This document shows positions 12,072 to 64,000 of a DNA stretch of 64,000 nucleotides, in pieces; the first letter of the stretch is position 1; the number at the start of each line of letters is the position of its first letter. Source of the DNA: Glycera tridactyla (Eukaryota); contig OZ286474.1 in the NCBI GenBank assembly GCA_965644265.1, positions 64,294,001 through 64,358,000 of the forward strand, given 5' to 3'. Made by a program: the position numbers and the translations under genes. Under the pieces are notes generated by a model. It was not told where the DNA came from. It saw only the letters and a program-made list of their open reading frames with translations, and did not search any database.

Positions 12072-12177
12072 TCCACCACCCATCATAACAACCACATTCA
12101 TCCCAAAATTCAACGCCCTCCAGGAGATCACCAAAAGAAACTGGGACCTTCTCAGACGCTCCAGCACCACCAAACAC

Positions 12178-31781: not shown

Positions 31782-33100
31782 TAAGTATGAAGCATGTGCG
31801 GTGTGAAATTTGAATGGATTATGGAACCATATTATGATTCTTCAAGCACTTTGAATTTATTTTGTGTGTCAATATATATACTCATGCCTTGTTATTAGTA
31901 TGTTATATAGGAGGAGATCTGCGAGGAACATACCTGAATACCTCTGAACCTTAACAATGGAGGCTGATAGATGCAGTGCCCTGATGGGGTAGGTACTGAC
32001 GTGGGATTCGTAAAATATCCAAAATGTGCCAATAAGCACAAATGCTGGGCTAAATCTGAGGCATTATGTTCTCATCATTGGCTGTCGTCCTAGAATGCAT
32101 TGAGAATTATTCCAGCCTCCTAGGCTGATCAAGAATTTGTTAAAAATGTCATAGATATTTATCTATTTATTTAATGGGTAGAGTTGCAGTGGAATGTATT
32201 CCGGCTCTCACTGTTGGCTGTGGTCCTGGAAGAAGAAACTGCAAAAATGCCTCACAAGATGAAGATAAAATCAAAATTTTTTTATTTCAAAATCTAATTA
32301 TCCTGCCACATGCCTGCCTGGCCAGGGTGGTGCATCTCACGGTTTCCCGAGCAGTGCAAGGGTATTTCCATATTTTCATATTTACATATTTTCACAACTT
32401 TCCTCTTCTATTTCCTAAGTCAATATTAATTATAATTTTCCCTGCAAATAACATACTTCTGTTGGTGCCGTGTGAAGCCTTACAATGACAGGAATGTTTT
32501 GGGGATTTCAATGAGGCGATATGGGATATAATTTGTGAAATGGTATTTTGAAAGCTTGTAATTGAGTCTGATTGTAATGCCATACATAAAGGTGACATAT
32601 ATTTAAAAAGGTCGGCAAGTTTGCTTTCTCTTAATTTCAAATATTATACTGTTGATTTGAGTAAATTCTAAGAGGGATCATTTTAGTTTTCTTATACAGG
32701 AGAGAGCATGTAGTTAGTCACATTATCTTGAAATAGACTTGAATTTGGTCGCATTTATCACTTTCATTTCCTAGGACAAAACCTGAATTTGGCCAATTTT
32801 TGAAGTAAATCATTTTTTAAAACATATTGTCTATTACTACTAATGTTATATTAGGCAGTACTTTGTTCACTATGATTTTCGATGAATTATTAGGGTGTGA
32901 GCTGGGGAGCTGTGAGGAATGCATTTACTTTAGGTTTTCTTTTGTTTAGTGTATTTTCAAGCCCTGGTGAGGTGAAGTTAAAGCCATACTTGACATTTGA
33001 CTTTTTCGTATATCGAATCATAAATGATGAGACAGTGAAAGCTAGTGATATATGTGTGTTTATGAAGTGTACTTGTGGATCTTGAGTTGAATTTGAATTG

Positions 33101-33540
33101 GTATCCTATCTTACAAATATCAAAAAGCCAAGATGACTGTACAGTATTTTGAGTTGAATTCAAGGCTTTATTTTCTCCAGTGACTTGTTTATCAGTATTT
33201 ATGTACATTAATTTTGGAAACTCAGATTGACCATTGTCCACTCTTTTCAAATTATTTTCCAATCCAATTTTATTTTAATTAATTGCTTGTCACCAAGTAT
33301 GTTTTTGTTCACTGATTTTGTTCACGGAGTATCCCATCTTACAAATATCAAAGAGCCAGGATTGCTGTACAGTTTTTGAGTTGAATTCAAGGCTTTATTT
33401 TCTCCGGCAACTTGTTTATCAGTATTTATGTACACTAAGCTGGGAAACTCAGATTGACCATTGTCTACTCTTTTCGAATTATTTTCCAATTTTATTTCAA
33501 TTAACTGCTTGTCACCAATTGTGTTTTTGTTCACTGATTT
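33101..33540. repeat. Tandem duplication (~228-bp unit) in the LINE-A esterase-pol spacer
   Basis: gtatcc(t/c)atcttacaaatatcaaa...gttcactgatttt occurs twice. Confidence 0.85.
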
Positions 33541-33949
33541 TCCTAAAAACTTTGCTTAAAGTGCGAATTGTTTTGTTTAATGAACTTTGATTGCCATACA
33601 AAGGTGAAGTGAAAGGTAAGTGTGACTTTGCTGTAAATCAAGAATTTGAACGGAATAATATTGCATCTTGAGGGAACTCATTTCCTGTTGCTTTTCTATA
33701 TATGAAAACTTCTCTCCTCTTTACTGATAGTGGTGATTTATTAACTAGGCTGAATTAATAAGTTTCCCAAGTTGGTGTGGGACCTGCTGTCTCTCCCAGA
33801 GAGGCAAACATAGCTATTTACTAATAAATACACTATAGCAATTTACACTAAAACATCTTGAATTTAGTTGAATTAACTATTGCTGTACTCGAAATATTTT
33901 TCTATTCTAAATTAAAATACAGATTTCCAACCACTGATTCATCATCATC

Positions 33950-40914: not shown

Positions 40915-41070
40915 TCTCTAGATAAGATAAGATAAGATAAGAGAAATTTTAATGCATAAGTTCAACATGATTACATATGGACCTCTAGGGTCGTATAACA
41001 CGCTTATGCAAACATATATACAGCAGGCATGGTGACTAGCGCACAATATATCAAAGATTCATTAGACTAT
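40915..41070 (-). mobile_element. Short LINE/SINE 3' end with (TCTTA)n tail
   Basis: (GATAA)4 on the plus strand followed by UTR-like sequence. Confidence 0.45.
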
Positions 41071-41125
41071 TGAGGGATGTCGCATGAAGATGTCGCTCCT
41101 TCTGCGTGATGTCGCTTGGCTTAAA

Positions 41126-41842
41126 TGTTAGTGTGAGTAGGTTGGATCACTTCTCTCATTGTGACTAGTAGCAGGGGTTGCCACAGACAAGTCAACGACG
41201 TGGAGTTCCAGTTCAACATTTATTCCCCAGTATACATCAGGCAGACATAGTATAAATACTATGATGTAATACTGTGGGGAAAGAAGTCTGTCAGCCCATG
41301 GAGTCCACACTCGACCAGTGTGACCCAGCTCAAGGAATGGTCTGCCGGTGCTTCCTTCTCCCACTTATTTATATGTTTCAGGCACACAAGTCATTACCAT
41401 AGGATTACACACTCATACACTTTATAGTTTTTTTATGGTATTTTTATGGTGCACAGGGAAACAGAAAAGCGGGGTTCTCACTAGCTCACCCTTCATAACT
41501 TACAGCAATCTGACTTTCATGTCTTACTTTATAGCTTCACATGGATATATCTTTTGCACTGAAGCGGGGGTCAGCACAAGTGGCTTGCTTCTTGAGTCCC
41601 ATTACTCAGAGTAATGGGTATGAGTAATCTCGAGAGCAAGGAGCAATAAAGTTTTATTGCTCGTGGGCTAATGCAGAAGACCTATTATCCCTATGGATAA
41701 GATTAGCCCGTCTGCATTCCAGTTTATGGCCAAAGGCGTAGAGAGCCATTATTTATGGGGCCATATACTGGCTCACTCGTGCGACACAGATGAAATAGTC
41801 ACAAGTTTAGTAATAGTTAGTATAAACGATTTGAGATATACA
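41126..41842 (-). repeat. Candidate 3' LTR of the Gypsy element
   Basis: Minus strand reads TGTA...TAACA; TATAAATAA box at about 41365-41373; AATAAA at 41219-24; purine run AAAGAAGAGA directly upstream (PPT-like). The partner LTR lies outside the window, so this is unconfirmed. Confidence 0.6.
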
Positions 41843-41862
41843 TCTCTTCTTTAGAAGCTAAC

Positions 41863-41923
41863 AGTCCGATATGACCCATTTGGTGTTGAAAGGACGTTAA
41901 ACCAAAATCAATCAATCAATCAA
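41863..41923 (+). mobile_element. 61-bp 5'-truncated SINE/LINE 3' tail with (TCAA)n and 12-bp target-site duplication
   Basis: TTAGAAGCTAAC at 41851-62 and 41924-35 flanks ...gttgaaaggacgttaaaccaaaatcaatcaatcaa. Confidence 0.9.
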
Positions 41924-44900
41924 TTAGAAGCTAACGTCCTCGTAGCTTCCAGGTCCCATCCACCCAAGCCAGCCAGGGACGTCCAGCCACCCAAGACCAG
42001 TCAATGAAAGATAATGCTGCCTTGACTAGCCATAGGCCTACTGATCACCCTCACTGAGCCAAATGGCCAGTGAAGCCGGATCACCACGAGGAGTCATCTG
42101 TTTCCGAATCCAACTTTCAAATTCCGTGCCCAACAGCTTCCACTGGCTTCCCTCATTTCCGGCTACTTGCGCGAAATAGCTTGACCGGTTGTTACCAGCG
42201 TCCGTCATTTATCAGTCGCAATGCGAATTCGAGAGTGCTTTCGTATACGTCTGCGCCTCCAATACGGAGACCGTCGTTTACTTATGGCTTCACTCTTCTC
42301 GTACCTCATGAGCATATACATTTTCGATATCAACTAGGTATGTCTCGGGTTTCCATTCTGTTCCTGCCTGGCGAATCAGGTCTTCATCCAGACAAGGCCG
42401 AACGTAATCGTTTGACATTTCATATTGTCAGTAACCAACAAAAATTCACATAATCATTTTACATATATGATATAACACAGTTTTCATTTTTGGTTCTTTG
42501 TCCCCCTTCAGACCAATGAATGCCTTAGCGTGGGAGTATCAGTGAAGGTTTCCTCCACATTCGCCAGTCACATTCTTTTGACCATTTTTGGTTGGTAAAA
42601 ACCAACCAGGGGCTGTGTATCACTCTTGTTCCTGGTTAATTTGAATGAAACGTTCACTGATACTACCACGTAGAACATTCATTCAACCCCCATGAAATAG
42701 AGTGATACTTGGGTAAAAGTATGACAAATCTGGAACCCTCTTCAACCTTCATAGGCATACCATTGCCGGGGATATGCACCATTTCTCCCCAGTCTTCCTG
42801 CACCATTTCTGGCACTTGAAGGTCTCAAACAACCCTACCAACTCACAAATAGCAATAATCACCACTAGTCTCGAGTTTTCATGCAGAAATCGTCTGACCG
42901 GCTTGCGGATTTTAGAAGTTACACAATGCGAAGCCATTATGCCAGGTGATTTGGTACGAAATATCTAGGTCACTGCGGCGAGATCGACTCCGATCATGGC
43001 GCCACCCCATGTATAATCACGGAACCGATACCGTTCAGCCTTGCCACTGCCAATAGTGCCTTACAAGAGAAGGCTGATGTTTCTCTTTCCCTAGAGTGTT
43101 TTTCATTGATTGTTTGGCCGATAAAAATTGGCCAGGGAAGGGAAGAAGGAAGGGAGGAAGGGAGGAGGAGTTGACGGGAGGAGAAGGAGTGGAATTCAAA
43201 AGTCGCTGGTAAACACTGTCCATTTTACAGAATGGACACCCAGGAAGCAGCCTGTGCACCACCCAATCGAAGTCTTCACCTCAACTTGGTAGCCAGGAGC
43301 CTCCAAGGCTGTGACACCAGTGCCTCTGAGTCGGCATCAACCATACCAGCAAGGTAGCACCGCAAGTGGTATGGGCTTTGGCACCAACCTGAAGGGAATC
43401 CGGATCCTATTCAACATGGTGGTCTCACCCATGTCCAAACTACGGGGGTTGATAACCAGAAGAGTATGCCTCTGCTGCTTCCTTCTCCAACCCTTATAAG
43501 ACTCAGCCTCCTACTATCCAGGGTTTCGACAATCCACTGGAAATTCCTAATTTCATGTATTTCCGGTGATTCTCAAAGAGATCGTACCCATTCCTTCATT
43601 TCTTCTGATTCCCCTTTTGAAATGCTGAATTTTAGTATTTGTTTTGAAGTGATCGGCCCATTTTTAACAAAGATATTACTCAATCGTTTTCTGACTAAAA
43701 TCTATCTTCAGAGAATCTAACAAAAAATGGCCGTCGTCGATTTATCCGCCATCTAGCGGAGTCCTCCAGAACTAGGCGTGTCTACTTTTGATTTATTCGA
43801 CCAGTAAAGACCAGCCAGGAGGAAGAGGAGGAAGAAGGAGGAAGAAGAAGGGGAAGTTTCACCAGCGCATCAGAACTTCGGACTAATGCCAGAAATAGAT
43901 GAAGAGAAAGTCATGACGAATGAGCGAGTTCCACCCATAGTGCATGGCCATCATAGACACATCTCTAGCAAGCCGGAGAATGATACATGGTCAGAATGTA
44001 TGTCCCCTCCCGATTTAATCTCCACCTTCATACTCTAATGCTCCATGCCTACCCCCGGTCGTATGCTCAAAAATGATTTTTCCTTGTTCTAATATTTCCA
44101 TATGCTCTGCATCGCCAGTTCTGGATTTCTTTATGATCGACGTATTCTTCATGAAAAATTGAAAATTTTGGTTACTCTATCTTGTACCTAGGTTTCTCCT
44201 ATGACTCGCTAACTGGTTTCAAATGCGATTAAAATGACTATATGTTGGTATTTCCAAGTTGACCTGACGTTGACCTTTCGGTTACAACCGTCGCACCATC
44301 TCGTGAGCAGTTTTGGAACTCTTAACGCCAAATTCCCTCACTGGGAAGCGCTATTCCTCAACTGCGATTGTTTTTCGTTCCAGTCGGTTTCCCATGGCAT
44401 AAATGGGATATACATCTCGAAGACGCTCTGCGTCTTTATTAAAACCAAAGAAATGTGTTTTCACTCCAATTGACATAACGATAGCGTGTTCAAAACACAT
44501 ATTTCAGAGAATAGATACGAAATGACCAAAAGATTGGCAGTCTTGAGGAATCGCGTATCCGGCTACAGCTCCATTCATCCCTAACATGAAGATCGAACAT
44601 CTACTAATCGGAATGTTACCAAACCGTGAACTGGGTTATTTTCAGGATAGGTGACCCAGAAGCCAATGGCTTCATCAGTAGAGAACAAGAAGGATAAACA
44701 GATGGCAGGAATAGAGAGAGAGATACAAAGAGAGTGAAAGTTAGTCGTACCGATAGAAGAACACACAACATCCATTACATTAAATCACAACATTGACTGC
44801 ATTGCCACGCCAGGCAGACACGATGAAGACAGGTCATAAGTCAACCATACTTCCCCCTGCTATGGCGATACAGTCCATTTCCAACACACCCCATAGACAT

Positions 44901-46165
44901 GTCCACTCCATCAGTCTATGTACACACTTCACGCCCATAGGCATGTCCATTGGTCACCCATGTCCCTCTTGCATGTCCATACACACGCTCAAGGGAATTG
45001 AGTGATAAGGACTGATAAAAACCCATCATTCTCTCCGGGGTCCCACATGGAACCCCATGATTCATTCTGATAGTCAGATCTAATCATCTGGGTGAAGTCA
45101 AACGTTTCACATGGCGCTTGTATTAGAGTTCACCATCTTCAGCCTTTCCTTGGCTGGGTTTCATATGCAAAAAGGGTATCGTGAAATAGAAATCATTCTA
45201 GCAGTATATATACATCGTCCGGGATAGCTCCCCACGATTCCCTATCTACTAGTCTCTGCTCAGTCTAAGCTAGGGTGAACTATCCCACTGCTTTCTCCTG
45301 GTGATACAGTGATATCTTAATCTTTGGTTATCCGATATCCATGTGCCTCCCCGATATGCATGACCAGCACGTCCATTTGCGAGGTCAAGGGACCAAATCG
45401 TAGACCTCCTGACATACAGTTCACCATCCGTCCCTGGAACTCAAGCAAATGAACATACCAGTTAATAACCATACACAATCAACAAAACATAATGGAATCA
45501 ACAGGCATATCACTATATATCACCTTACAGATTTTACAGTAAAAGTTGGCCCACAACATCCCTTCAAAGACCCAGAAGATTTCTATTCTAACCTGTCTCT
45601 AATACAACGTAACACCAAAATTCACACAAAAATATAGTACCCTATCGAAAAATTTTCCCTGGTACGATAGGGGTGATAGGGTGCTACATACGTCAATATC
45701 AGGGGAAAAAGATAGGTCGCGGTAAGAGCACACATCTCTCTCCCTCACCCAACCGTACCATACACCTTTCATACAACAGATACGAGGATCATTAGCATAG
45801 CCACGGTCTTTATGACCTAACTTCAGGTCAAGCCCTGGAGTACAGCTTGCAACAGGACTCCTTATAACTGATACTACCAGATTCCTCCATTCAAACTTTC
45901 CCGCCAAAAATATGCAAGGCTCCCTGTTCACACATACATACGAAGCCCTGCCATTAATATCGGGTACATGGTCTTGATGACACAGTCTAGGAAGACAGGT
46001 CGAATATTCCTAGTCTGAGTCAACAATCATCTGCATCGTTCATAAGGTCTCCCCATGCATGAATAGTATCAAGATTGGTTCTATTGCGAAATATAAGGCT
46101 ACCTGAGATGGAACCACATGAAGAAGAGATATATGTATATTCATATATATACTTGTGAGATGCCA

Positions 46166-47814
46166 TTACATTCTGGTGATCTCATTTTTGGGATTCACCT
46201 TTCTACCATCGTTTTGCAACTCATATTTGTCTGTTCCATCTCCAGAAGCTGAGGCTAGCAGAGGAATGTTAGCATTATCAATAGCATTTTTAGGGGTCTG
46301 GTCCATAGCAGGGTATAGTACGTTAGGGGTTATTTCCGGGTTATATATCCCTTTACATTTCCAGCCGTCACAGTCCGGCTGGCAGATTTTTGGAATGATG
46401 TAAAATTTGCATCCAATCTCTATTCTGAATACAGCAGTAAAGCGACCTTGTAGAATACGTTTAACTTTCAAAGCTTCCCATGGAAGTAGTCTCAATCGCT
46501 CAGGCATGGGTAAAGGTGTATTCCCCATCCTATTTCCCACAATCAGACCCCTCCAAGAGGCAGACAGATACGACATGCATCGGAAGTCTTTTACCTGATA
46601 AGGTCCTGGGACTCCTAGTCCCATCAAATGATAATTTGACATAGACCCAGGAAGTTTCATGATCAAAATGTCCTGATATTCCACTAAGTTTCCTAATTCC
46701 AAGATCAGCTTACTCCTCGTTCTGCAGCGATGAGCGTACATGGTATACGCCAAGTATCCTATTATGACTAATAGTCCCGCCACAGCCAGAAGCGCCAATA
46801 CACCTACTACCTCGATATGCTTTCCTTCATAACACATGTCCTGAGTAAAGGTATCCACTTGGAAACCATCTATATGAGGGATCCTACTTTTTGTAGTGGT
46901 TGGAATGGTCCGTCCCAATAGACGTTCATAGAAGTCCTGAGGGAGGTCCTCCAGCCCATCTACAGCTGTAGGCTGTAAAACACCAGCTAAAGTATATGCA
47001 TTCATCATCTTTTCTAGCAGACAATACGAGCGCCTAGTGTATATAGCCAGGCCCATGGAGGCAACGGCTACCAAAATACTGAGCAATCCTAACACATTCG
47101 AAAGTGTGAAGAATTCGTCTGCTGAGTCTAAGTCCCACATACTAGCAGCAATCTGCTTGATAGGATTCACATCCAGCCCTTCCTTTGCTCTTTTCATCAC
47201 AGAAGCCAGTTGCATCGAATAATCGTAATCTCGATTCAAATTCAATTCAAAGTCCTCACTCACTTTGATTTCTGGCAATTTCGGTAGCCACTTCTCACTA
47301 TACAAAGTTTCACCATTCACCTCTTCAATATTTTTTCAAATCATAAATATGTGACAAAGCAGCTAGATTAATCGGATGTACGACAGTAAGCCCAGACGAT
47401 TTCTTCACACAGTTATTGATACGGGCTGGTAAAGCTGCTGCTGAGATCATATTAGATATATGAATAGTTCAACCGCATGGTCATTCCATTTGGCAATATA
47501 CGCATCCTTCTCGTTGTTTAGGTAGCTCAGCCCCACAGTGTTGAAAGATGCTCTCAGCGTTATGTACCAACACCTCACCATTTCCAACATCCACTAGGTC
47601 TACAACAGGCTCAGTTTTCTCAAATCTGAAACCACATAGCTCTCTAACCAAACCAGAATCATCTTGAAAAATGGCCGCCATACAAGATGGTTTATCCATG
47701 TCAAATATTTTCATAGATGATGAACACCTAAAAGCAGTTGTATCATCACATCTAGCTAATTCTTTATGAGTCATCTGAATATAATTCAGATTATCGTCAG
47801 ACACTCCGAGGTAT
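46166..47814 (-). pseudogene. env: env, C-terminal half (Cys-rich ectodomain, TM1, TM2, C-terminal domain)
   Basis: YLGVSDDN...CVYC...PARINNC...HPINLAAL; hydrophobic segments VLGLLSILVAVASMGLAIY and VVGVLALLAVAGLLVIIGYLAY; continues in frame from 55601. Confidence 0.82.
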
Positions 47815-47908
47815 ATAGTTCAAGCGAGGCATGGAGTAACCGCACACCAGTCCGCTCTGAGAAGAATCTAACCTCACGCAATATCAGCAGATGCTATAGC
47901 AACGAACT

Positions 47909-50173
47909 ATGGACAGCTTCAGGGACTATATCTCAGGAAGGAAAATCGATAACATCGAGGATTCTGAACGGAAAATGGAAGGCAAAATCAAGCAAACTGG
48001 TGAGAACTTGAGCGATAATAAGAGTACTACGGATGGCAAGTACACCCCCCTCCCCAGAATTGCAAGGAGTTGTAGTGCTAGATCTCCAACAGACCATGAC
48101 CCAGACAATAAGAAACAACGTAGTATAGATACTGACCACGAGCTGCAAAATGAATGTTCTAAAACAGCGAACAGTGATATTGATTCACCAGAAGATTCTT
48201 TTAATTCATTAAGTGTTGCTAGTGATGAAGAAAGCGATGAAAGTGTAGTAGTAGACGATGAAGTGGAAAAAGTGGATGAATTTGCAAAGAGGCCGCTTGT
48301 ACGACTGCCAGGCTCGAATCAAGTCTCGAATGGTTCGGGAATCAGCAAGCAAATCGAGATCGCAGATCCCGAAATGACCGCCGAGACAATCGACACTCAC
48401 CCGGAGGCGAACACCGATAAACAACTTGCAGCCGTCGGTCCCCACTGCAAATCCTCCCCGTGCTCCTCGGAATCATCGCGCGTGACCACACCGATAAGTG
48501 TCAATGAGAAGAACCGACCTGACGACCATGGCGGTCACGCTTCAATGAGCACAGATATTGACTTCCCCACTGAAATCGAATTCTCCCCTTCACCAAAACC
48601 AAATGGTGGGACTACCTTGATATGTCAACCTCCTAATGCCTTTGACATTGTGAATTTGCGCAAATCGCTGCGCGAGGATCTAACTGAGATAATACACTTG
48701 GAACTGAAAAGTGATGTCAAACAACAAGTCAAATCAGAATTGATAACCGAATTGAAAACAAGTATTGTACACGAGATAAAAACAGAACTTGTACACGAAG
48801 TTAAAAGTGATCTTGTGAAAGAAATTAGGACAGAACTAAAGCTCCTGACCCATGCTGAAGTCGACAGGTGTGTCAAATCTGAAATGAAAAGCATGATCAA
48901 AACAAAGAGCTTCCAAAAAGAACTGAAAGAGGAAATAGACAATAAACTCAAAAATCGAGACATGATAAAAAACGTGTGCAAGGATGTTGCTAAACAAGAA
49001 TTGGCTCCACTCTGCAAGAAGATCGTCAATGATGATGTTTCCCATAAAATAAACAGTGAATTGGGGAAATTTCAGACAACATGGAGAAGTGAACTAACGA
49101 CAACAATAGAAGACTCGCTAATCGATAACACCAACATGCAACAAAATATCATAAAACATGATGAACTCCTGGAGAAGCTTGGTGACATTGTGAAAAATCA
49201 ACAACAAGAGATATTATGGCTTGAGACGGAACTGAAAACGATGAGAGGAGACATGGATGATAAAATCGAAACACTAAATCAGGAGATCATACAATTGAAA
49301 GAAGAAGTAAAGAAGATGATGGATATTGGAATAACTCCTGATAGTAAGGACATCAACAAAATTCAAGAGAAGATAACCATCTTGGAAAGAGACATCGAAA
49401 TATTGAAAAAGAATGACCGTCTTAATGTCATTATTGTAGACGGCCTGACCTTCGAGCGTGATACTTCTCTCTTCGAGCAGCTGGTAAGAGTGTTCAATGA
49501 TATAACTGGCTTAAAGTTAAATGAAAACCATTTGGCTCAAGCAGTCCGCTTTGGACCTGTCACAAAGGGGAAACCTAGGCCTGTGAGAGTGAGATTTGTG
49601 AACCCCAATATCAGAAGGGATCTCTTGCAAAGAAAGTCAATGTTCCAAAAATCATCAATTTTTATTAGGGAACATCTCACGCCGAACGAAAATTCTATCT
49701 TTCAAGAGGCGAAACAAGCAAAAATTGACAAAAAAATACACCAAGTATGGACATCACAGGGGCAAGTTTTTGTTGCGAAAACAGAACATGAGCAAAAAAT
49801 CTCTATACCCAGCATTGCCAAACTAAATGATATAATTAAGAGTAAAGCCAAGCAGCCGAACGATGTTGGATTCAAACCTAGACGAAGGTGGAACCCATTA
49901 AAGGGAAATCAAAATCCACCACCAAATTCAAGAATCACAGACACTACCACTGGAGCCTCAAATGCTGAGCTAAAATCGCGAGAAAACACTCAGAATAAGT
50001 CAAATCCATGGACCAATATCCCATACAAAAATGAGGCGACTATAAAATCGCGGGATGTAAGTAGCGCCGGCGGAGCAAATCAAGCCCATACTAGCGCGAC
50101 CTTGTCAGATGGGCTAAACCTGGCGAATCCGTTCGATACCCTCGGCAGCCTAGAAGAATCTCACCGACCTTAG
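47909..50173 (+). CDS. LINE ORF1p, 754 aa (disordered N-terminus, long coiled coil, RRM-like/FP25K-like domain, disordered tail)
   Basis: Uninterrupted ORF; VIIVDGL...RFGPVTKGKPRPVRVRF...FIREHLTP...VWTSQGQV is homologous to ORF1 of family A. Confidence 0.9.
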   Translation: MDSFRDYISGRKIDNIEDSERKMEGKIKQTGENLSDNKSTTDGKYTPLPRIARSCSARSPTDHDPDNKKQRSIDTDHELQNECSKTANSDIDSPEDSFNSLSVASDEESDESVVVDDEVEKVDEFAKRPLVRLPGSNQVSNGSGISKQIEIADPEMTAETIDTHPEANTDKQLAAVGPHCKSSPCSSESSRVTTPISVNEKNRPDDHGGHASMSTDIDFPTEIEFSPSPKPNGGTTLICQPPNAFDIVNLRKSLREDLTEIIHLELKSDVKQQVKSELITELKTSIVHEIKTELVHEVKSDLVKEIRTELKLLTHAEVDRCVKSEMKSMIKTKSFQKELKEEIDNKLKNRDMIKNVCKDVAKQELAPLCKKIVNDDVSHKINSELGKFQTTWRSELTTTIEDSLIDNTNMQQNIIKHDELLEKLGDIVKNQQQEILWLETELKTMRGDMDDKIETLNQEIIQLKEEVKKMMDIGITPDSKDINKIQEKITILERDIEILKKNDRLNVIIVDGLTFERDTSLFEQLVRVFNDITGLKLNENHLAQAVRFGPVTKGKPRPVRVRFVNPNIRRDLLQRKSMFQKSSIFIREHLTPNENSIFQEAKQAKIDKKIHQVWTSQGQVFVAKTEHEQKISIPSIAKLNDIIKSKAKQPNDVGFKPRRRWNPLKGNQNPPPNSRITDTTTGASNAELKSRENTQNKSNPWTNIPYKNEATIKSRDVSSAGGANQAHTSATLSDGLNLANPFDTLGSLEESHRP

Positions 50174-50560
50174 TGAACAATGGCTCGATTAATAAGCGCT
50201 ATACGAATTAATGACAGATTAGCAGGCTTCGAGAATCCGGTAAGAACGAAGGGATATATACAATTGAAAGGCGGGGTGTGGTTTGTGCTCTATATCTCGG
50301 GTTTAGTGATCAAATCGGAATCGATACCGTGGGATTTCCCTCATCTTAATGACGTCATCACTCCATATATGGTAGTTAATTCCAAACACCATATGGTATT
50401 GAACTTGCGGGATTTTCCTGATAATAGTGACGTCAGAACCCCATATAAGGAAATTATTGTTAAAATTAGGAGTTCCGCGTTTTAACTCCATACCATCGCA
50501 TGAATACAACTGCCACAACCATGAATGAATATATTATAATGATACTATTAATTTCTGCAG

Positions 50561-51460
50561 GCTGACTGGACATCATCACTGAGACTAGCCAAGAGTCGAG
50601 TCCAAATTCCTCCAAAAAGATGTCCTATATACAGAAGACGAAAACAGCTAGAAGGGATCGAATACCCTGAGGTTCTCGTCACAGGCTCCAGCCACGCTGT
50701 CCATACTGGCTGTTATATCAAGAACCTATCTACTGGTGACGCAATGGGAGAAGTCATGTCAAAATGGAAATTCAGAGGCTTCAGTGGTAGCAAGTGGACC
50801 GAAATACAAGAACACCTACATGGTCGTTTTGGTGATGATCAGCGTAAACATGATAAATATGGTAACACTATTCAATCCCTGACATCTGATGGCTATAGGC
50901 CTAACTATGTAATCATCATTCTTGGAAGTAATGATGTTGACCAGTTTAATGTTGAAATAAGAAATATCTCAAAACAAATCACCAACCCATTGGTGAGGAA
51001 TACAGAAATTAACAGAGAAAAAATTGCTCGTTTTGGTAAGATTAAAGCAAAAGTTCTCAACTTGCTACGACACCTAGAATACCTGTATCCTGAAGCACTT
51101 ATCATAACAATACCAGTCCTGTGGCGCCCTAAGTGGTGCGATGAAGCAAGATCCCTGGCACTTTGGATTGATCATCTGTTCGTGATGGAACTGAAGAATA
51201 AGCACCTTGATGTTGGTATTCAGCAGAATGTTAAAATGCTACAAATAAACCAATTGTTTGTACGCCCATATAAGAATACCCCACTTGAACAGACCCGTAA
51301 ACAAAATCGTAAACATGCTGCTAAATTTGGTGAACTACTAAATGGCATGTTGGCATTTGATCGGGTTCATTTGAACAACTATGGCATGCGTATTCTTAGT
51401 AGACACATAGTGGGCTCAGTATTGGACCATTGGATTTCTAAATCTGAAACTAACAAATAA
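50561..51460 (+). CDS. SGNH/GDSL-type esterase of LINE family B, intact frame beginning at a splice acceptor
   Basis: Frame is open from 50552, upstream of the listed ATG 50744; VTGSSH (I), GFSGS (II), ILGSND (III), DRVH (V); preceded by tattaatttctgcAG ending at 50560. Confidence 0.87.
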   Translation, partial: ADWTSSLRLAKSRVQIPPKRCPIYRRRKQLEGIEYPEVLVTGSSHAVHTGCYIKNLSTGDAMGEVMSKWKFRGFSGSKWTEIQEHLHGRFGDDQRKHDKYGNTIQSLTSDGYRPNYVIIILGSNDVDQFNVEIRNISKQITNPLVRNTEINREKIARFGKIKAKVLNLLRHLEYLYPEALIITIPVLWRPKWCDEARSLALWIDHLFVMELKNKHLDVGIQQNVKMLQINQLFVRPYKNTPLEQTRKQNRKHAAKFGELLNGMLAFDRVHLNNYGMRILSRHIVGSVLDHWISKSETNK

Positions 51461-52351
51461 AACGGTCAGCACAAATCTCACTGCCACACGACGAATGATA
51501 GATTGGGGATAATGGGTTATCACAGCAAATAACATGACTTGTTTGTATCTAGTGTGCGTGCTTACTCAAAGTGCGAAAAGACTACGCCATTATCCATTCC
51601 AGATGACCAGATGGGTGGTTATATGAAATGAATAATTGGGAAGCTGGACCGGTTTTTCTCGAGGTATAGTGATCTGCTTTTGTTTCTGTTTTCTATATTT
51701 TATTTTTATATATTTTTGCTGCCCGAAAGGTATTGTCAAGGTCGTAGATGCTGGATGTCGTTGTGTGTGATGGTGTCTCGTGTCTTTGGTCCTCTCCTTA
51801 AAATGGGGTCCGCCAATAGGCAATGGGGTACTATCGCATACATTCGGCATCAAATCAGTCTCTATAGCTTTGAAAATGTTTCTCTGGGATCTTGAAACAG
51901 CTAATATATATTTTTATTTAATGGCATGAATTCTGATTGACTGGTGCTCAGCTGCTGGCGTATAGGATGGACAACCATGCACTGGTCCTCTCCGTAAAAT
52001 GGGGTCCGCCGGAACATTGGAAACTGGCTATCCTGCATGCCATCATCGGGTCAAATAACCATTCAACCACCATTCAAATAAACCATTCAATCGATTAAGA
52101 ATAATTTGTATAGCCTATATATTTTTGAAATTATCAAATGGGTATTTGGAGATGGAGAGGATATGTATGTACTTGGGAGGAGGGGGGGGGAGGGAATAAG
52201 AACTAAGATCACAGTTGTCACTCACTTGAAAGAACCGAATTGAATATACTATATCTGCTACTATCTTAGATATGATTGTATAGCTTCTCAGGGACAATAT
52301 GATATTTTCCACTTGCATCAAAGCTAAAGTGCATCATCACTTTAATCTGAA

Positions 52352-55233
52352 ATGAACATTTGTATAAACTCATCTAAAGAATTAGCCGAATTATCTGGTA
52401 TCAAATATGCATATCTGAATGTCTGCAGTATTGTCCGCAAAATTGAAGACATAAGAGTTTTCTTGTTTAGGAGTAAGATAGACTTGCTAATTATTGGGGA
52501 AAGATTCCTGAATACTTCTATATCTGATTATGAGATTCAGATCAATAATTATAATATGTATAGATTCGACAGGGATTTAGGACAGGGAAAACGAGGGGGG
52601 GGGGTCTACTTGTGTATACTAGAATAGACAGAGATTTTGAATTCATTAGTATTTGGGGTCTATGTACGCCAGATCTAGAATATGTATGGCTAAAATTGAA
52701 CCTGAAGGATACAAGACCAACATATATATGTGGCTACTATCGTCCACCTGACGGAAATGTTATAAATGCCATTGACCTACTTGATAATAAGTATAAAGAT
52801 GTCATACATCTAGGGAATCATGATGTAATTTTTCTCGGAGACACGAATATAGATTTGGCATCTAAAAATAGACACTCTGAAAAATTAATAAATTTTTTGA
52901 AAGAAAATCACCTTACGCAGGAGATAATAAATCCAACTCGTATCACGAGTAAATCAAAATCGCTGATAGATCATATTATCACAAATAACCGAGAATTATA
53001 TGCTCGATCTGGCCAAATAGATATTGGTGTCTCTGATCATTCTATGATATTCACGATTCGAAAGAAGGGCCGATCATCTAAAAGAAGTCACTACATACAT
53101 TTGAGAGATTATAAAAACGCAGACTTTGAGAAAATAAATGCTGAGATTTTAAACATAGATTGGAAATTTCTGAATAATCTTGATGATATAGATTCCACAA
53201 TGAAAGACTTCTACATGAAAATTGGGCCTATTTTTGAATCGCATATTCCTGTCAAAAGAGTGAAAGTGAGAGATGATGCACCAGCATGGATGACTGGGGA
53301 GTATCATTGCATGGTAGATGAACGTGAGAAGGTAAGCAAACAGAAAAGACTTGACCCTACCCCTCAGATATGTTTAAGAAAGAAAGAAATTCAGAAAGAA
53401 ACCAAGAAATTGAAAATCCATCTTCAACGTAACTTTTTGAAAAGCAAACTAAACGAAAATCATGATGATCCTAAAACTCTGTGGAAAACTATAAGACATT
53501 TTTGGCCATCAAATAAACAAAACTCATCAATTAATAAAATAAATGGTAAAACAAGTGATCTTGAAATGTCTGAAGAGTTAAATAAATTTTTTGGAACCAT
53601 TGGAACCTCCCTATCAGAAACAATTGGACCTGTGGACCTCGATCCCACATCACTTATTAGACAGAAATATCACAATACCTTCTCACTATCAGAAACCACC
53701 AAAGATGCAATCCAGGAAATTATTGATGATATTAACCCGCATAAGGCTGGAATGGAAGATGTCCTCTCTGGTAAGTTTCTTAAGGGCATATCAGCATCTA
53801 TTTCACTACCGCTATCCCACATTTTTAATAAAAGTATACGTGATGGTAAATTTCCCACAGCTTGGAAACAAGCGACGATTAAGCCTTTATTTAAAGAAGG
53901 ACAGAAATCTGACCCTGCAAATTACCGTCCTATAAGCCTGTTAATACCTGCTAGTAAATTACTAGAGAGGATAATACAAAATCAGGTATCTTCTTACTAC
54001 GAAAGAATGAATCTACTGTGTCGAGAACAGTCGGGTTTCAGAAAGTTTCACTCCACTGGGACCTGTTTGATAGATTTTTTGGATGGCATATATCGAGGTA
54101 TAGATGAAGGAAAAGCAAGTGGAGTGATCTTCCTGGACCTGAAAAAAGCTTTCGATATGGTGGACCATTCAATCCTTTTACAGAAATTATCGGATTACGG
54201 TTTTGATCCACGGTCTGTACAATGGTTTGCCAGTTATTTAACCGATCGCGTATGCATGACACGAGTTAATGATGTTACATCAGGTCGACTGCCAATCAAG
54301 TGTGGGGTACCACAGGGATCAATACTTGGCCCTAGTCTTTTTACAATCTATATTAATGACCTTCCTACTTTCCTAGACAACGTGAAGACCAATTTGTATG
54401 CAGATGATACTGCCATCTCAGTCAGAGGAGATAATGCAAATGACTTAGAAATAAAGATGAATGATAACCTCTCTAAGGTTGCAACATGGTTGGCAGCAAA
54501 TAAACTGTCACTAAATGTAAAGAAAACGAAAGCGGTTGTTTTTGGTACTCGTAATATGATAAAAAATTATGGAAATTTAAATATTATAATAAATGAAACT
54601 AAAATTGAGATCGTAAATGAAATGAAATATCTGGGGCTCGTGCTTGATTCGCTGTTGACCTTTAACACTCATACTGAATATGTACGTAAAAAAACTATCG
54701 GCAAGATCAGGTTTCTTGGTAGACTAAGACCAATTTTAGATCAATCAACGACCATGATGTTATATAAAAGCCTGATCTTGCCGATTATTGATTATTGTGA
54801 TATCATATACTGTGGGACGAGTCAGAAAAGCTTACAAGATATACAAAGATTACAAAACCATGCCCTCAAGGTCGTCGCACGAAAACCCAAACGCACAAGT
54901 ACTATAGAATTACATGAGGAATTGAATATGCCCTTATTAGAAAAACGTCAAGAGCACCACACTCTTATACAAACAAGTAGAATGCTAGACGAAAAGTCGC
55001 CTGGAAAATTTAAAGATTTTTGTAAAATAAAAGCTAATCGACATTCTCACCAGACAAGAGCCAGTGCGAAAACATTGCTTGAAAAACCTGATACTAGATT
55101 GAGAATGTGTGAAAATAACTTTACAGTGCGTGCAGCAAAAATTTGGAACAAGTACTGCGAAGACTTTGAGGACTTTGAATTATTGCCTTATGATCAATTT
55201 AAAGACCATGTGAAACAATTTCTGCATTTATAG
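52352..55233 (+). CDS. LINE pol (APE plus RT) with a single frameshift in a G10 run at 52595-52604
   Basis: YLNVCSI, IIGERFL, GGGLLVY, CGYYRPP, GDTNID, SDHSM, NYRPISLL, FLDLKKAFD, PQGSILGP, YADDTA, KYLG; 873 codons open after the run. Confidence 0.93.
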
Positions 55234-55600
55234 TAGACTTACTCTTTAAACTTTTGCTATATATTGACCAAAGACGCCTATTTATCGGACATGAACATTG
55301 ACGATACACATCTCACCTCTATTACGATACCAACCCAAAAGGAAAGAAGTTTATAATCTTTGTAATGCTCACCTTATTATTTTATTTTTTCAAAATTCAG
55401 CATTTATTAAGTTAGAAAATGTTTTTGGATTTCTTGGTTATTATACTGTATTTTATTTTTATTTTTACATATTTGTCACTTATATGTGCGGATACTAACC
55501 CATTGCCATTGTCACTAACGATTTACTGGAGAGGGCTGCTACAGGCAGTTAATTGTATTAATCGTTATAAAATAAAGGTATATCTATCTATCTATCTATC

Positions 55601-57123
55601 TATTCAACAGGAGTCTTCAGACGACTAGTCTGGGTTGAGTCATCTGTAATAGGAGTATTATGGATGGTCACAGAGTACAACCTAAAATCTTTTGTCAATG
55701 CTGACAACGGGAAGTCCAAAGAGACCATTAGATACTCCTCATTAGTCCTAAAATAATTCACCCGTCCATATCGATAATAAAACTGAGGAGATAATTCCGT
55801 GAGATGAAAATAGGGATAATCTCATCTCATTTGCTCCTGCAGAGTCAAGATAGTATCTGTCAAGATTGCGTGATTCACCAAATAGGGGCTCAACTTCCCT
55901 CTTACTAAATCATTCACTGCTGCCATAAGATGGTCAATCTGAGGGCTCAATGTTTGCATTTTTTCTATCATGCTCGCAAGCACTGAACTGGAACTAATGC
56001 TGTACTGCATCACCCTCCAGAGGCGGTTGTCCACATGATGGGACAGGTCCTGCAGCTGTCCCTGCAATTCCGTTTGTAGTGCTGAAATGGTCCCTGCCAC
56101 GTTGGTAAATCGTTGGGACACTACATCCATGAACGAAGCAGTTTCACTTTGAAATTTGGTGAAGTGCCTCGCCGCTGTGAGTTGCTGATCTGTAGCAAAC
56201 TTCACCACCCTAGCCAGTCTCTCAACATCTTCGTTGATGGATAGTCCGAATACGTGTTTCCCTATCCAAGCGAACGGATTCCATCTCTTAACTTGACTAT
56301 TACACCTCACCACAGGTATGTACTGTTGAACTATTTCTCCCATCTCACCCAGCTGTATATCTACCTGCATAGCTAATTCCAAATAATGGTTATATTGTGC
56401 TAATTTATGATCCAAAATATTATTGACTTCATATGAGTCCTTCTGGGTGATATTCGCCAAAATCAAGGGTTCTGGTGCCTGTTGGGCTATTCTATCTTTG
56501 ATAGAACGTCTGGTTCGTTTTCCCTGTCCCCATTCATCCATTAGAGATGAACATTGAGGGTCTGGGCATTGTCTCTCAAATTCCTTTATACAATCAGGGT
56601 TATTATTTTCACAAGCGTCTCTAGCAGCTCGTCTTGAGCATACCAGACGTTTCTGTCTACCAGAGGATGTGAGATCCTTATCGATATCACTTATATCCTT
56701 CTTCATACACGCTTGATAGTTTACTACATAAGCCTGATAGGTCTGAGTATATCACCCATAGCTACTCCAGTTCACATAAGAGGCTAGATCCAAAATGGCA
56801 GTCCAAACTTTATTCGCATCTCTTACCATTTGGCGTTGAAACTTTCTCAGAAATCTATCTAACGAGTGGTTATCAGTACAATGCTGGTCCGTGCATGTTG
56901 TTTCTACATCTCTGAACAATTGCCTGCTAACTTCAGGAGGTATATCTACACAAAAGATATGTGTCCAACTTGAAGAAGCTAGATATAGTGTTTTCAAAGG
57001 TTGAAAACTCACACCATAGTTTGGTCTACTTACTGTATCTAGAACCCCATTGACTTCCATTTTGATATTCGAGATATCCAAATTAGATAAGGCCATAAGG
57101 GCAACTGTCCAAACCAGCGCCAT
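55601..57123 (-). pseudogene. env: env, N-terminal half (signal peptide, furin-like sites, fusion peptide, heptad repeat); two in-frame stops
   Basis: MALVWTVALMAL signal; RPNYGVSFQP...WTHIF; KRTRR and VKR/WNPFAWIGKHVFGLS; heptads; GKLSPYLV. These features resemble class I F-type fusogens (baculovirus F, errantivirus env). Confidence 0.85.
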
Positions 57124-57366: not shown

Positions 57367-58056
57367 ATGGATCAAGTGGTTCTGCAGGAATCGATTCTGG
57401 ATCGCCTGGTTTACATTCTACAGGATCTGGATACACATCATGGTATCTCCCGGATTGATGTTCTAGCCGGGACGGATATCACTGTTGCGATCCTGAATCA
57501 ACAAGGATCAGGGGCACCACCTATGGGACATAGCATTTCTAGTCAATCCCAGCCTCCTCATCATACCATTCATTCAACTCTATGGTCGCTGGGAGACCAT
57601 TTGCTAACGACCACTCGAAATCTGGATGTGCCTCTTCGTTATGAGGAGCGCAGAGACCTGCAAAGGGTGATATCTCTGTTGTCTGAGATACCCTCTGTTG
57701 AGATGCCTCCCGCTCCAGGGAGAATGGACAATCCTCCCTCCAGACCTTCTAATACTGTCCGGCCTAGAAGGTTATCCATTACTTCATCCACAGCAGCTCA
57801 ACCTAGATCTGAGGAGGGATCACCCCCAAGTTCACCCTTTTCAGATATTGCAATGGATCCTCCCCCACTTCAAGATACTCCGTCTCCCGGCCATATCTCA
57901 CCTGCCCCCAGTATCGATTCCTTTCCACATTCGCCTAACTTCCCTCCACCAGCCTGGGGACATGATCCTCCAATGCCTCTGCTTATGGAAGACAATGACT
58001 CTAACGTATCTCTCCCCAGCCTAGAAGAAGGAGAGATACCCCCATCTGAGGAATAA
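57367..58056 (+). CDS. Antisense ORF between pol and env, 229 aa from ATG, Pro/Ser-rich acidic C-terminus, unknown function
   Basis: Uninterrupted although the flanking sense genes carry stops; ends SLEEGEIPPSEE. Confidence 0.55.
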   Translation: MDQVVLQESILDRLVYILQDLDTHHGISRIDVLAGTDITVAILNQQGSGAPPMGHSISSQSQPPHHTIHSTLWSLGDHLLTTTRNLDVPLRYEERRDLQRVISLLSEIPSVEMPPAPGRMDNPPSRPSNTVRPRRLSITSSTAAQPRSEEGSPPSSPFSDIAMDPPPLQDTPSPGHISPAPSIDSFPHSPNFPPPAWGHDPPMPLLMEDNDSNVSLPSLEEGEIPPSEE

Positions 58057-58854: not shown

Positions 58855-59987
58855 CTACCTGCTTGACCTGGGTTCTATTTCTTTGGCCAGATCTGCATGG
58901 ACTCTGGGTTCAGGATTCGCATGAGGGTCCTTAGAAAGGGTCCTTATCCTGCTATCGTCTTCGTCTCTGAATAACGATAATTTATTGCCATGTATAAGAG
59001 ATCCCAGAGACATGTTTGTGTGGGAATCTTGCAACTTATCCAAAACTCCGCCAAGAGTATCGGTGATACGATAGGGGCCCAAATGTTGGCTATCAGTTTT
59101 TCCTACTGCTTGTCCCGCTGGTCTGGCGGTTTTCATCCAGACAAGATCACCGATTTTGAAAGGCATCTAACCCACTTGGTATCGTTTCTCATATACCTCC
59201 TTATACCTCTTTGCAGAAATTTCTATATTCTTTCGGGCCATTTCCCTATGATAAGTAAGTTCTGGCAGCAAAGCCTCCAGGACTTCTTGGTCCTTGTCTG
59301 ATAACATTTCTGGATCTCTCACATGACAATATTCCCCAACCGAGGTATCAACCCCTGTCGCCAAAAACATGGGGGTATACCCTGAGGTCTGAGAGGTTGA
59401 AGTGTTTAGGTTCAACCTAACTACTGGCAGATATTGAACCCAATCATTGGTTTTACTCACCAACATCCTCATCATTGCTAGAATCGAACTATTCACTCTC
59501 TCCACTTTGCATTAGATTCGGGCCTATGACTACTGGTAAAAATACGTTTGTATCCCAAGAGAGATGCTAAGGTCTCCATCAGGATACTTCTGAAACTCTG
59601 GTGCCTATCAGTGGTTAAAATAACTGGGCAACCATGCCGACATATCCACTCACGAAAGAACGCTTTTGCAAGTGTTTCCGCCTTCTCATTTGGTATTGCA
59701 GCTAGCTCAACATAAGACGAAAATGAGTCTATCATCACCAGCAATTTAGTATGTCTTGTTTAAGGGTCTGCCGGAAGGGACAGGACATCCATATGGACAT
59801 GATACCAAATAGGGAATATTTGGCGCAATTCCAATGGAGACTTATAAGAATTATAAGGTCTCTTACCACTTCCGCATGTCTGGCAACTCTGTACGTATGC
59901 TTTCATATCTGCAGTCATCTTCGGCCAATAATACTTATTACGTACACTTATAAGTAACTTCGAGGCGCCTCGATGGTATCCCATCAT
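58855..59987 (-). pseudogene. Integrase (H-H-C-C remnant, D,D-E core, GPY module) in pieces
   Basis: YYWPKM...CQTC; VHMDV; IDSFS; LTTDR; HRPESN; ERVN; LGPYRI. Confidence 0.92.
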
Positions 59988-60984
59988 GTAAGTCTATTAC
60001 ATGGCTGCGAAACTGGATAGGTAGGCAGAGTTGCAAATAGTGATCGTCCCTCTCGCGGGAACCCGGCGTACTAAAAATTCTGTACATCAGGTCTTCTGCA
60101 CCTAGGATATGATGCTGATGGTCTCTCAATACGACTTTCATTTTCTCAGATTCTTTTGGTAGGGTTCCAAATTTCAAATAGTAATACATCTCTTTGAAAT
60201 CTGGACTTTCTTGTTGCATATCCCTCCACAAATGTGAATCTGCTTTAAACTGTTTCAGTTGTTCTTCTAAAAGGCGTGGTCCCAAGAAAGCATGTATCTC
60301 CTCATCGGATTCGCCATCTTTGGTTCCTTCCACGATTTCGTCTGAAACCATAGCCTCTTTCTGAGAAGTTTCCACCGCCTGCTTTGTATAAACATCACGA
60401 TTATTAGAGGTATGTCGGGTTTCATTTGCTATTTGACTTATAGTCTTTTCCCTAGGCATATCACCACCTATAGTCTTCACAAACATTACTATCGTTTCAT
60501 CCAACGGTGTCCCTAAATCCCTTTGGGTATAGTTTGTTTTGATGGATTTCTCTTCTGGTATCCTAGATAGTGCATCTACAGCCTCGATGGTTTTTCCAGG
60601 GGCATGCGTGATCTCTATGTCAAGACCCTGGATTTCCAGAGCCCATCTTAGGAGATTTGGTGCTGAAGAAGTCCTCAAATTCTTGAGATATCGTGCAGTC
60701 AAGTTATCAGTGGTGACATTCATTTTCTGTCTCCCCAATAAATGACGATATAAGCGTATTGACAGAATCAGACTGAAGGCTTCTTTGGAATTTATGTCCC
60801 AAACTCGTTGTTGTTCATTCAACTTTTTAGAGAAGAATGCCACAGGTCTGAGGCCATCATTGTCGACCTTCTGACTCAAAATGGATGATATACTATGTTT
60901 GGATGCATTGGTAGTCAGGAAGAATTCCAGATCCAACCTTGGATAGTGCAAGACTGCATTTTTCAAAAGTTCGGCACTTTCCAT
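59938..60984 (-). pseudogene. RNase H and linker
   Basis: TNASKHSISSILSQ, RPVAFFSKKL, KEAFSL, VTTDN, RWAL, HAPGK, VDALSR. Confidence 0.9.
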
Positions 60985-62128
60985 CCCACAGAAAAGGTGT
61001 ATCTTTTCGAGTAAGATTCGTAATGGGTTCGGCTATTTCTGCATACTTCTTGATGAATTTCCGGTAATATCCGGTAAGACCTAGCCATCTCCGGACTTCA
61101 GTCACGTTGGTCGGAGCCGGAAATTTCTGAATAGCCTTTACCTTTTCTGGATCTGGCTCAAGACCCTTTTCAGTCCAAATGTGACTTAAAAACTTGAGTT
61201 TCTTGCGTGCAAAATCACATTTTCTTGAGTGTCTGGTGAACCCATATTGTCTGAACTGATTGAACACTCTGGCCAGATGGACCAGATGGTCCTTAAAGGT
61301 CCTAGAAGCCACGAACACGTCATCCAGAAAATTCCAGACATACGTCTGTCCCAGACGACTAAGAGCTGCACTCATAGCTCTACTATATGTAAATGAAGCT
61401 AACGAGAGTCCAAAGGGTAATCGAAGAAATTTGTAGCTACCTTTCCCAGTTGTGAAAGTTGTACAGTCTTGACTATTTTTCTCCATAGCTATCTGATAAT
61501 AGCCAGATAGCATATCCAGAGAGGACATCCATCGTGGTGCTTGCCTGGCTATTGATTCGTATATATCGTCAAAAGTAGGCATCACGAACTATCCAGCCTC
61601 CTTCTGAGTCTTAGCATTCAGTGCTCGATAGTCAATGCAAGCTCTGTATAACACAGAACCGTCTGGCGCAGGATTTTTCTTTTTGACCATTACCACTGGA
61701 GACTGCCAAGAACTGTCAGACTCGACAATCAATTTAGCGGCTAGTAACTCCTGTATCTGTTCATCCAGAGATTCTTGCTTCTCTGGACTCAATTTGTATG
61801 GTCTCTGGCATACAATTTTTGCATCAGGCTCGAGTTTGATTTCATGTTCCACACATGTGACCTTTCCTAAATGTTCCGTAGAAGTGGCAAATATATCACG
61901 ATTCGCATTCAATAAGTCTACAAGTTGTCTTTTCTGTTCTCTGTTACAGTCTGACAAATCAAGAATTTCGTGCCATTCGATTTCTTCAAATACACAATCA
62001 CCACATAATTCCAGACCCAGCACGTTTTCTTTGAAAGCCTCTTCATTAAAGTAATTAGGCGGAACGGTTACGGTCGCCTGCTGATTTGATGTTACCATCT
62101 GCATAATGGCCATTACCTCTCCGCCCAC
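60893..62128 (-). pseudogene. Gypsy reverse transcriptase (in-frame stop at 61589)
   Basis: QRPYKLSP, WQSPVVMVKKK, RACIDYRALN, LDMLSGYYQI, TTFTT, LPFGLS, FLDDV, FLSH. Confidence 0.95.
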
Positions 62129-62179
62129 ATTACATGGATCAATGATCTCAATGTCATCATCGAAAGTGAGGCGTGCCAG

Positions 62180-62902
62180 TTACATGGAGGGTTGAACCTT
62201 TAATGGTTTATCACCAGAGTTCGCCACTTTTACTACGAGAGACCCTGACTCACTGATAGTAACTGAGCATGGATCCAACTGTAAGTTCACAGGTGTATCT
62301 GCATTGTTACTTGGGACTACGAAACCTTGGACTGATTCTACATCACTTTCGCCTGTGAAACCAGGAGAAAATAATGCGCTCAGCCAGTATTTATCGGCAA
62401 CTTGTAGCTTGATTGTTATGAATGTATGTGGTGGGATTGTGATATGATCTGTACTTATGACATCGATCGCCCGGTCAATAGGAACATGTGGCAGTATAGT
62501 AGCAATCAGTGGAGTTCCCTCAAAGGAGACAATACCCTGTTCAAGGTCTATAACCGCTCGGTGGTTCTTTAAAAATTCCATACCTACTATCATAGATACT
62601 GGCAGACCCTCAGCTACCATCAGGCCCACCGAAATTTCACGGCCTGCAATTTCAATAGGAATTTCCATGTGTCCTAAAATTGGAATTTGTTTCCCTGAAG
62701 CGTCTGCTAATTTCAAAAATTTACCACCATCTATGGGCAAATAGCACTCCAGGTTGAATTGCTCCCACTGATTCTTACTAATCAGACTTGTGGTGGCCCC
62801 GGTATCTACAAGAGCCCTCGCAACCATGCCATTATGCATCACACATATGAGACTACCATCTAGATTCAGAGAGAATTTTGTACCATCATTTTTAGCAAAC
62901 AT
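62180..62902 (-). pseudogene. Retropepsin-type aspartic protease and spacer
   Basis: ALVDTGATTSLI and MIVGMEFL motifs. Confidence 0.92.
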
Positions 62903-62950
62903 TATATTTGGATCACCACTTTTTGTCTTTGGAGGAGTGAATATGGAAGA

Positions 62951-64000
62951 TCATTGCAACATTTGATTATACCAACATGATTCGGTGGGATGATTTTTCC
63001 CACAATTTTTACATGTTGGGGGGCATGTCTTGTCCATGGCACTTTTCCTGTGAGGACAATCTGCCATGAAATGTCCCTTGCAACCACAGTGAAAACATAC
63101 AGCAGCTACTATGCCAGTGGAGGAAGAGGAGAAGTTATTAGCAGGTTTTGTGAATTTCGCATTTGGCTTAACTGTGTCTTTCTCAGGACAATGTGGGGCA
63201 TAATGTCCCACTTGTTGACACTTATAGCAGGTTACTGAAGCCATTTGTTGGACGAGACTTTCCCCCTAATCCTACTATTTTGTTGAAATTATCATTATTA
63301 CCACCATTGCCGTTTTTACCGCGGCCTTTGCCATGACCTCGGCCAGCACCTCTTTTCATGCCTCGGCCTCTTGAAATTCTGCGGGAAAATCCGGAATTTC
63401 CAGAATTTCCCGGTTGAGCATACATGACTGTATCCTCAGTCTGCTCAACATCGGCCTTTGTAGAGGCCTGTTGTTTCTGAGTAGTCGCACTGGCGACTAT
63501 TCCATCTTCATATCTAGAATCTGAAAGTTTCGCAGATTTCGCTGCTCGTATGAAGTCACTTAATGTCTTTGGCCCTCTGGTGGTGATTAATTGCCTTACA
63601 GCCTCTCGGGCTCCTCTGACAATAACGAACATTACATATCTTCCTTCAATAGGAGAGAACTCCTCATCTTTTTCATTAGTATAGACTTTTCTGGTTATTG
63701 ACATCACCTTTCTGATAAATTCTTCTGTTCGTTCTGCCCCTTGACGTAATGCGTCCAATTTGTATAATTGGTCCCAAGGTTCAATGCCTAGTTTACCAAA
63801 TTCTTCAATAAATTGGGCCTTAAGTCTCGCCGGTTCTTTGTCCTGGAGAGATTCGTACCACATAACTGCCTCATCTCCAAGAACTAGAGGTAAAATTTCC
63901 TCTGGTTTCATACCTTTAAAGGTACAGTATCTTTCTAGTCTGCCTTACCAAACGTGGGCATCATCTTTGGCCGCATCAAAAATGGGTAATTTCAAAATAC
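62951..64000 (-). pseudogene. gag: gag (capsid-like region, RGG-rich stretch, three zinc knuckles), truncated by window edge
   Basis: LGDEAVMWY, QFIEEF, LRQG; CYKCQQVGHYAPHC, CFHCGCKGHFMADC, CKNCGKNHPTESC. Confidence 0.88.

Follow-up and report, generated by a model that had tools for sequence, protein, structure and literature searches.

We consider it reasonably likely that the single env open reading frame (ORF) of an abundant Ty3/gypsy retrotransposon family in Glycera tridactyla joins a class I F fusogen to a module that is freed as a membrane-anchored, matrix-fold protein organizing budding. The copy in the window, by which we mean the whole 64,000-nucleotide stretch of DNA analyzed here, is a dead, LINE-broken member of this family on the minus strand.

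The 3' LTR of the window copy (41045..41842, minus strand) is 96.8% identical over 802 bp to a 5' LTR located about 1.1-1.9 kb past the window end (L021:3116-3919), and the K2P distance of the pair is 0.026. A purine-rich tract precedes the 3' LTR, and a TGG start adjoins the 5' LTR on its inner side. Pfam profiles identified a broken gag (62951..64000, minus strand), with a capsid-like part, CCHC knuckles and its start outside the window, and a broken pol (58855..62950, minus strand) with protease, reverse transcriptase (RT), RNase H and integrase (PR-RT-RH-IN), the RT of which matched Ty3 RT best in the PDB (E 5.7e-28), with foamy virus and MLV RT behind. Judged by sequence, the LTRs, gag, the PR-RT-RH-IN order and an RT nearest to that of Ty3 among solved structures place the element in the Metaviridae (Ty3/gypsy) with env. 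The 4.3 kb between env and the 3' LTR (41843-46165) are common to other copies down to at least 43700 and hold no ORF longer than 160 aa in the window copy.

Env is interrupted after codon 507 by a LINE of about 7.8 kb (47824..55602, plus strand), the one that the first-pass annotation had removed to read env. This LINE encodes ORF1 (47900-50173, plus strand), an SGNH/GDSL-like ORF lying between ORF1 and ORF2 and scoring below the Pfam cut-off (50552-51460, plus strand), and an endonuclease-RT ORF (52564-55233, plus strand); it has a (TCTA)n tail, and the 5-bp repeat at each junction may be a target duplication. Elsewhere in the window, a second LINE at about 29500-36700 also carries a separate SGNH/GDSL-like ORF (30906-31781, plus strand; below the Pfam cut-off), and a broken element at 8006-12807 (plus strand) with RT-like and GIY-YIG-like frames looks Penelope-like by eye.

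The first piece of env (55603..57123, minus strand, as are all env features below; 507 codons with two in-frame stops, ATG at 57123) contains, in order, a signal peptide, a Cys-rich insert, furin-like sites, a fusion peptide (56245-56283) and a helical region, with the KRTRR furin-like site at 56506-56520 and the cleavage-like site VKR/WNPFAWIGKHVFG at 56245-56292. The middle piece (47334..47813) encodes the Cys-rich F ectodomain, with two stops and a weak Baculo_F match (E 0.046), and ends at a frameshift. The last piece, a 389-aa open frame (46166..47335), comprises the end of the ectodomain and the F protein anchor TM1 (47039..47095), followed by an internal signal-peptide-like segment (46955..47038), which by our own heuristic has a basic n-region, an AYTLAGVL core and small residues at -3/-1. 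Behind it come a short, predicted lumenal segment of 46 aa that is Ser/Thr/Pro-rich in homologs (46817..46954), TM2 (46745..46816), which has acidic residues ahead of it and basic ones behind and would anchor the second protein, a presumably cytosolic beta domain with a predicted mononegavirus matrix-like fold (46382..46735; model pLDDT 88), and a tail. The window env lacks 17 codons near codon 115, its frame shifts near 47335, and in-frame stops interrupt it four times, at codons 124 and 434 ahead of the LINE and twice around 47470-47483. It aligned to a natural open copy in three pieces (residues 1-524, 525-684 and 677-1072) with 86-90% identity, which gives about 1,055 codons, in agreement with the approximately 1,050 of the first-pass annotation. 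The parts named there, from the signal peptide, Cys-rich stretch, KRTRR, VKR/WNPFAWIGKHVFG, helical region and GKLSP to the Cys-rich ectodomain, TM1, AYTLAGVLQPTAVDG, TM2 and the roughly 190 aa up to the stop at 46166, were all located where they had been placed on the minus strand.

The 2.04-Gb genome was searched with the last 389 aa of env, and 106 of the 2,579 candidates were scored, revealing two subfamilies with approximately 91% and 67% identity to the query. By our own count, at least 60 of the 106 scored copies have a stop-free frame of at least 1,036 aa that spans the part behind TM1. Nineteen copies picked for open frames measured 1,072 aa (12 copies) or 1,066 aa (7 copies) from ATG to stop, and open copies are 91-99.8% identical within a subfamily. 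Because the part behind TM1 lies in one frame with the F part in these intact copies, for which the first-pass annotation had suggested a search, a separate ORF behind TM1 was ruled out.

A profile of four C-terminal parts, run against 1.84 billion representatives, gave 516 clusters, the best 150 of which were examined; among the matches listed, all 52 hits of at least 760 aa have an F ectodomain. These 52 and 10 full-length sequences from the genome formed a sample of 62, in at least 90% of which R297, F309 and G310 are kept. Of the 19 full-length envs that were scanned, 7 scored above the cut-off for Baculo_F. By homology and modelled fold, the env ectodomain is of class I F-type and a predicted fusogen, so that the likeness on which the first-pass annotation had staked its reading holds. 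The furin site adjoining the fusion peptide, RVKR/WNPF, occurs in all 19 open copies. Both cleavage-like sites described earlier are present in the window, but two is too low a count for the family, since R-x-K/R-R occurs three times or more in 17 of the 19 open copies, with the third site immediately ahead of WNPFAW.

Homologs have a median length of 810 aa, with at least 1,000 aa in 3 of 52 and at least two strict sites in 6 of 52. Most of the length that this env has beyond typical homologs falls in a poorly modelled N-terminal stretch from the first to the third site. In RSV F, the peptide flanked by two furin sites is released, a possible parallel by analogy. Length and several furin-like sites were rejected as a peculiarity of this env, as some F envs with a single TM in the same genome also measure 900-1,000 aa and have 2-3 sites; one single-TM copy (L060:1539-5444) has an extra N-terminal part in a 1,302-aa open frame. 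Among 20 other Baculo_F loci taken from the genome, the module was absent in 18 and present in two, and a search with one of these two retrieved further module-bearing families.

Both TM helices are hydrophobic (60 of 62 sequences each), and the C-side is the more positive one at both in 61 of 62; at TM2, the charge is positive after the helix in 61 of 62 and before it in none. As the charge bias is the same at TM1 and TM2, the helices would be parallel, which requires a third crossing between them. By a heuristic of our own, and on sequences gathered with a profile that includes the scored segment, 55 of 62 sequences combine, between the two helices, basic residues with a short hydrophobic core and with small residues at -3/-1; shuffled controls gave a mean of 8.4 and a maximum of 20 of 62. 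As far as sequence can tell, this looks like an internal signal peptide, behind which comes a segment of about 35 aa rich in Ser, Thr and Pro. A hydrophobic core of 8-12 residues is typical of cleaved signals and short for a lasting TM helix. The conserved signal pattern and the same-direction charge bias thus favor the polyprotein with a second membrane protein that the first-pass annotation had suggested; its cleavage is our inference, and three crossings with cleavage are, in our assessment, very probable.

An env that stays uncut, as one three-pass protein in which F carries a covalently attached, matrix-like cytosolic domain, would suit the weak and short core of the window family, which is among the weakest of the 62, as well as the conservation of the whole architecture as one ORF. 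We consider it quite unlikely, given the short core, polar linker and small -3/-1 residues in 55 of 62 homologs and the fit of 8-12 residues to a cleaved signal. Just two segments pass the 19-residue hydropathy threshold and the domain region has several Cys, as would be expected if the protein crossed the membrane only twice, with a cytosolic loop and the C-terminal domain exposed on the outer side for attachment or receptor binding. The charges flanking TM2 speak against this arrangement, subfamily A has no N-glycosylation sequon behind residue 434, and ESCRT-type motifs are sensible only in the cytosol; its probability is very small.

In fold searches with the isolated beta domain, four different viral families occupied the top five ranks, and the matrix-like match was repeated with a second model. 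Structural alignments to mononegavirus matrix proteins showed 7-12% identity and no sequence similarity. Foldseek against the PDB returned no match at E<=0.001, a profile search of the PDB returned no matrix protein, and Pfam analysis of 79 domain-bearing members showed no matrix family among the 25 of 68 families listed. A word-index homolog search gave nothing with single queries and 2 proteins with the domain profile, and none of 25 pattern matches in IMG/VR was confirmed. No Pfam family covers the domain, which occurs in 516 or more clusters. In one of the 79 sequences that bear it, a chromodomain is present as well (E 3e-9), perhaps through fusion of pol with env or as an artefact of gene calling.

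The domain behind TM2 and the F core are under equally strong selection (dN/dS 0.044 and 0.038, respectively; pooled pairs, 12 copies). Late-domain-like motifs are enriched in the tails, with LYPxL in 38 of 148 and PT/SAP in 8 of 148; the present family has the variant LYPxM, as LYPAM in the window (46304..46318) and LYPEM in subfamily B. We take such a LYPxL-type motif in the env tail to be a putative ESCRT-recruiting late domain. The second protein could be real and its matrix likeness a common beta arrangement, in which case it might act as a chaperone, trafficking adaptor or immune antagonist. This seems unlikely in view of the four viral families in the top five ranks, the agreement of the second model and the enrichment of late-domain-like motifs. 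2H enzymes have a pair of conserved His-x-Thr/Ser motifs; the domain has no such pair, which excluded a 2H phosphoesterase and also argues against a common beta arrangement. Homology of the domain to matrix proteins, as judged from the models, is probable.

In the mechanism that we propose, the product of the one ORF, with its F-homologous ectodomain, would be cut by furin at as many as three sites, and the final cut would expose the fusion peptide. TM1 would stop transfer, the next segment would restart translocation and be cleaved by signal peptidase, and TM2 would stop transfer again; the cut would leave F with a short tail only. The predicted matrix-like, cytosolic domain behind TM2 would then form a layer under the membrane and link F to the Gag core, while LYPxL/PSAP motifs would recruit ESCRT, tasks for which retroviruses use Gag MA and late domains. 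Matrix-like work of this kind in budding appears fairly likely. Ty3/gypsy Gag is without the retroviral MA layer, and an env-made matrix-like protein with budding motifs offers a testable route to an envelope.

The top 10 matches of the isolated domain in BFVD were long chu-like virus glycoproteins of 1,041-1,235 aa (prob 0.98-1.00, E 3e-3 to 6e-2), and for the whole env the leading matches were for the most part these proteins again (E 7e-26 to 6e-12, over 800-1,300 columns in most cases). The best whole-env matches (E 7e-26 to 3e-15) rank ahead of baculovirus F; the relation to baculovirus F env proposed in the first-pass annotation thus stands for the F ectodomain, but jingchuviral glycoproteins are closer among predicted viral structures. 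Shayang fly virus 1, Atrato chu-like virus 5 and Hubei myriapoda virus 8 belong to Aliusviridae or Myriaviridae by look-up; one other matched virus is unclassified, and four more fit the genus list by name. We infer from the models that the F-plus-matrix layout, with the C-terminal domain and internal signal, is common to env and chu-like glycoproteins. An uncharacterized abalone herpesvirus protein of 801 aa (BFVD A0A145VUZ2) is also similar to the model of the whole env (E 3e-21) and is possibly a captured env of the same type.

A tree of 44 ectodomains, in which sampling favors module carriers, the branch is long and the root is at midpoint, grouped five single-TM envs of the genome, with starred support, as the sister of the clade that holds the window env, within the module-bearing envs. 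Module presence requires two changes on this tree, and the placement would fit a loss of the module. The chances are about even that a widespread group of invertebrate LTR retrotransposons and long-glycoprotein jingchuviruses share an ancient polyprotein of fusogen plus membrane-anchored matrix. The retrotransposons would then bud in the manner of negative-strand RNA viruses, with env, not Gag, supplying a budding matrix with ESCRT motifs, the matrix of these jingchuviruses would be at the glycoprotein end, and the free mononegavirus M may descend from the tethered module. If true, what passed between a retroelement and negative-strand RNA viruses would include an assembly module besides the fusogen.

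An antisense ORF of 229 aa (57367..58056, plus strand) lies between pol and env in both subfamilies, with 229-230 aa in subfamily A and 317-333 aa in subfamily B. It has a helical-looking N-terminus and a Pro/Ser-rich acidic tail, no match in Pfam and a dN/dS of 0.10 over codons 1-140, and of the 150 copies scored, most have the frame open. Antisense ORFs of roughly 190-300 aa also lie where pol meets env in other env-bearing families of the genome (L046:1464-2096, L053:1220-1990, L049:3938-4852), some overlapping the pol end; a weak likeness (E 5e-5) links the ORFs of L046 and L053, and none clearly resembles the window's. Antisense ORFs were rejected as carriers of the matrix-like domain (E 1.4 or worse).

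The ICTV profile (PMC10770922) gives the aliusvirus and myriavirus genes as GP, NP, L and unknown ORFs and names no matrix gene; the glycoprotein C-terminal part is where we predict the unannotated matrix. In its available part, the Viro3D paper (PMC12583693) counts Aliusviridae among the long class I glycoproteins and discusses N-terminal extensions, leaving the C-terminal part unexplained. The available parts of PMC5408684, PMC8220671 and PMC6932829 contain nothing on a matrix-like domain in env or GP, and within literature in which subscription journals were thinly covered we found no report of such a domain in a retrotransposon env or jingchuviral GP. The first-pass annotation had cited insect errantiviruses as known carriers of an F-related env; the available text of PMC13524379 already reports Ty3/gypsy elements with env from hosts other than insects. 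The element type is thus known, and the matrix-like second protein in env appears to be undescribed and widespread.

In that study (Chary and Hayashi; PMC13524379), the available text describes 'ancient errantiviruses' with F-type env across invertebrates that share with the present family the Ty3/gypsy gag-pol-env, LTRs, F ectodomain, furin site, fusion peptide and many open copies. Two module-bearing families of the Glycera genome also have a pol chromodomain, as does a cnidarian-mollusc-annelid clade in that text. Env was trimmed there at the first TM and the ectodomains were analyzed, and the main text available does not once use the words 'matrix', 'late domain', 'ESCRT', 'cytoplasmic' or 'antisense'. 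Baculovirus F and gypsy/ZAM env have a similar F ectodomain but, unlike the window env, one TM anchor, about 500-660 aa (BFVD rows) and no second protein. The long glycoproteins of Jingchuvirales (Aliusviridae, Myriaviridae and unclassified chu-like viruses) are the best structural matches in BFVD of both the domain and the whole env, although they belong to negative-strand RNA viruses and are 10-15% identical to the env described here. The beta fold predicted here may be that of Borna M, paramyxovirus and pneumovirus M and filovirus VP40; there is a single domain as in BDV M, and VP40 bears late-domain motifs to which those of the tails are similar. Mononegavirus matrix proteins are soluble, peripheral and encoded by their own gene, whereas the present domain is TM-anchored and made in env behind a TM helix, which weakens the case that it is an M and leaves the case that it works like one unaffected. 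In alphavirus, flavivirus and bunyavirus envelope polyproteins, a TM anchor is followed by basic residues, an internal signal peptide and the next membrane protein; their fusogens are of class II, and the likeness is one of layout, with no homology implied.
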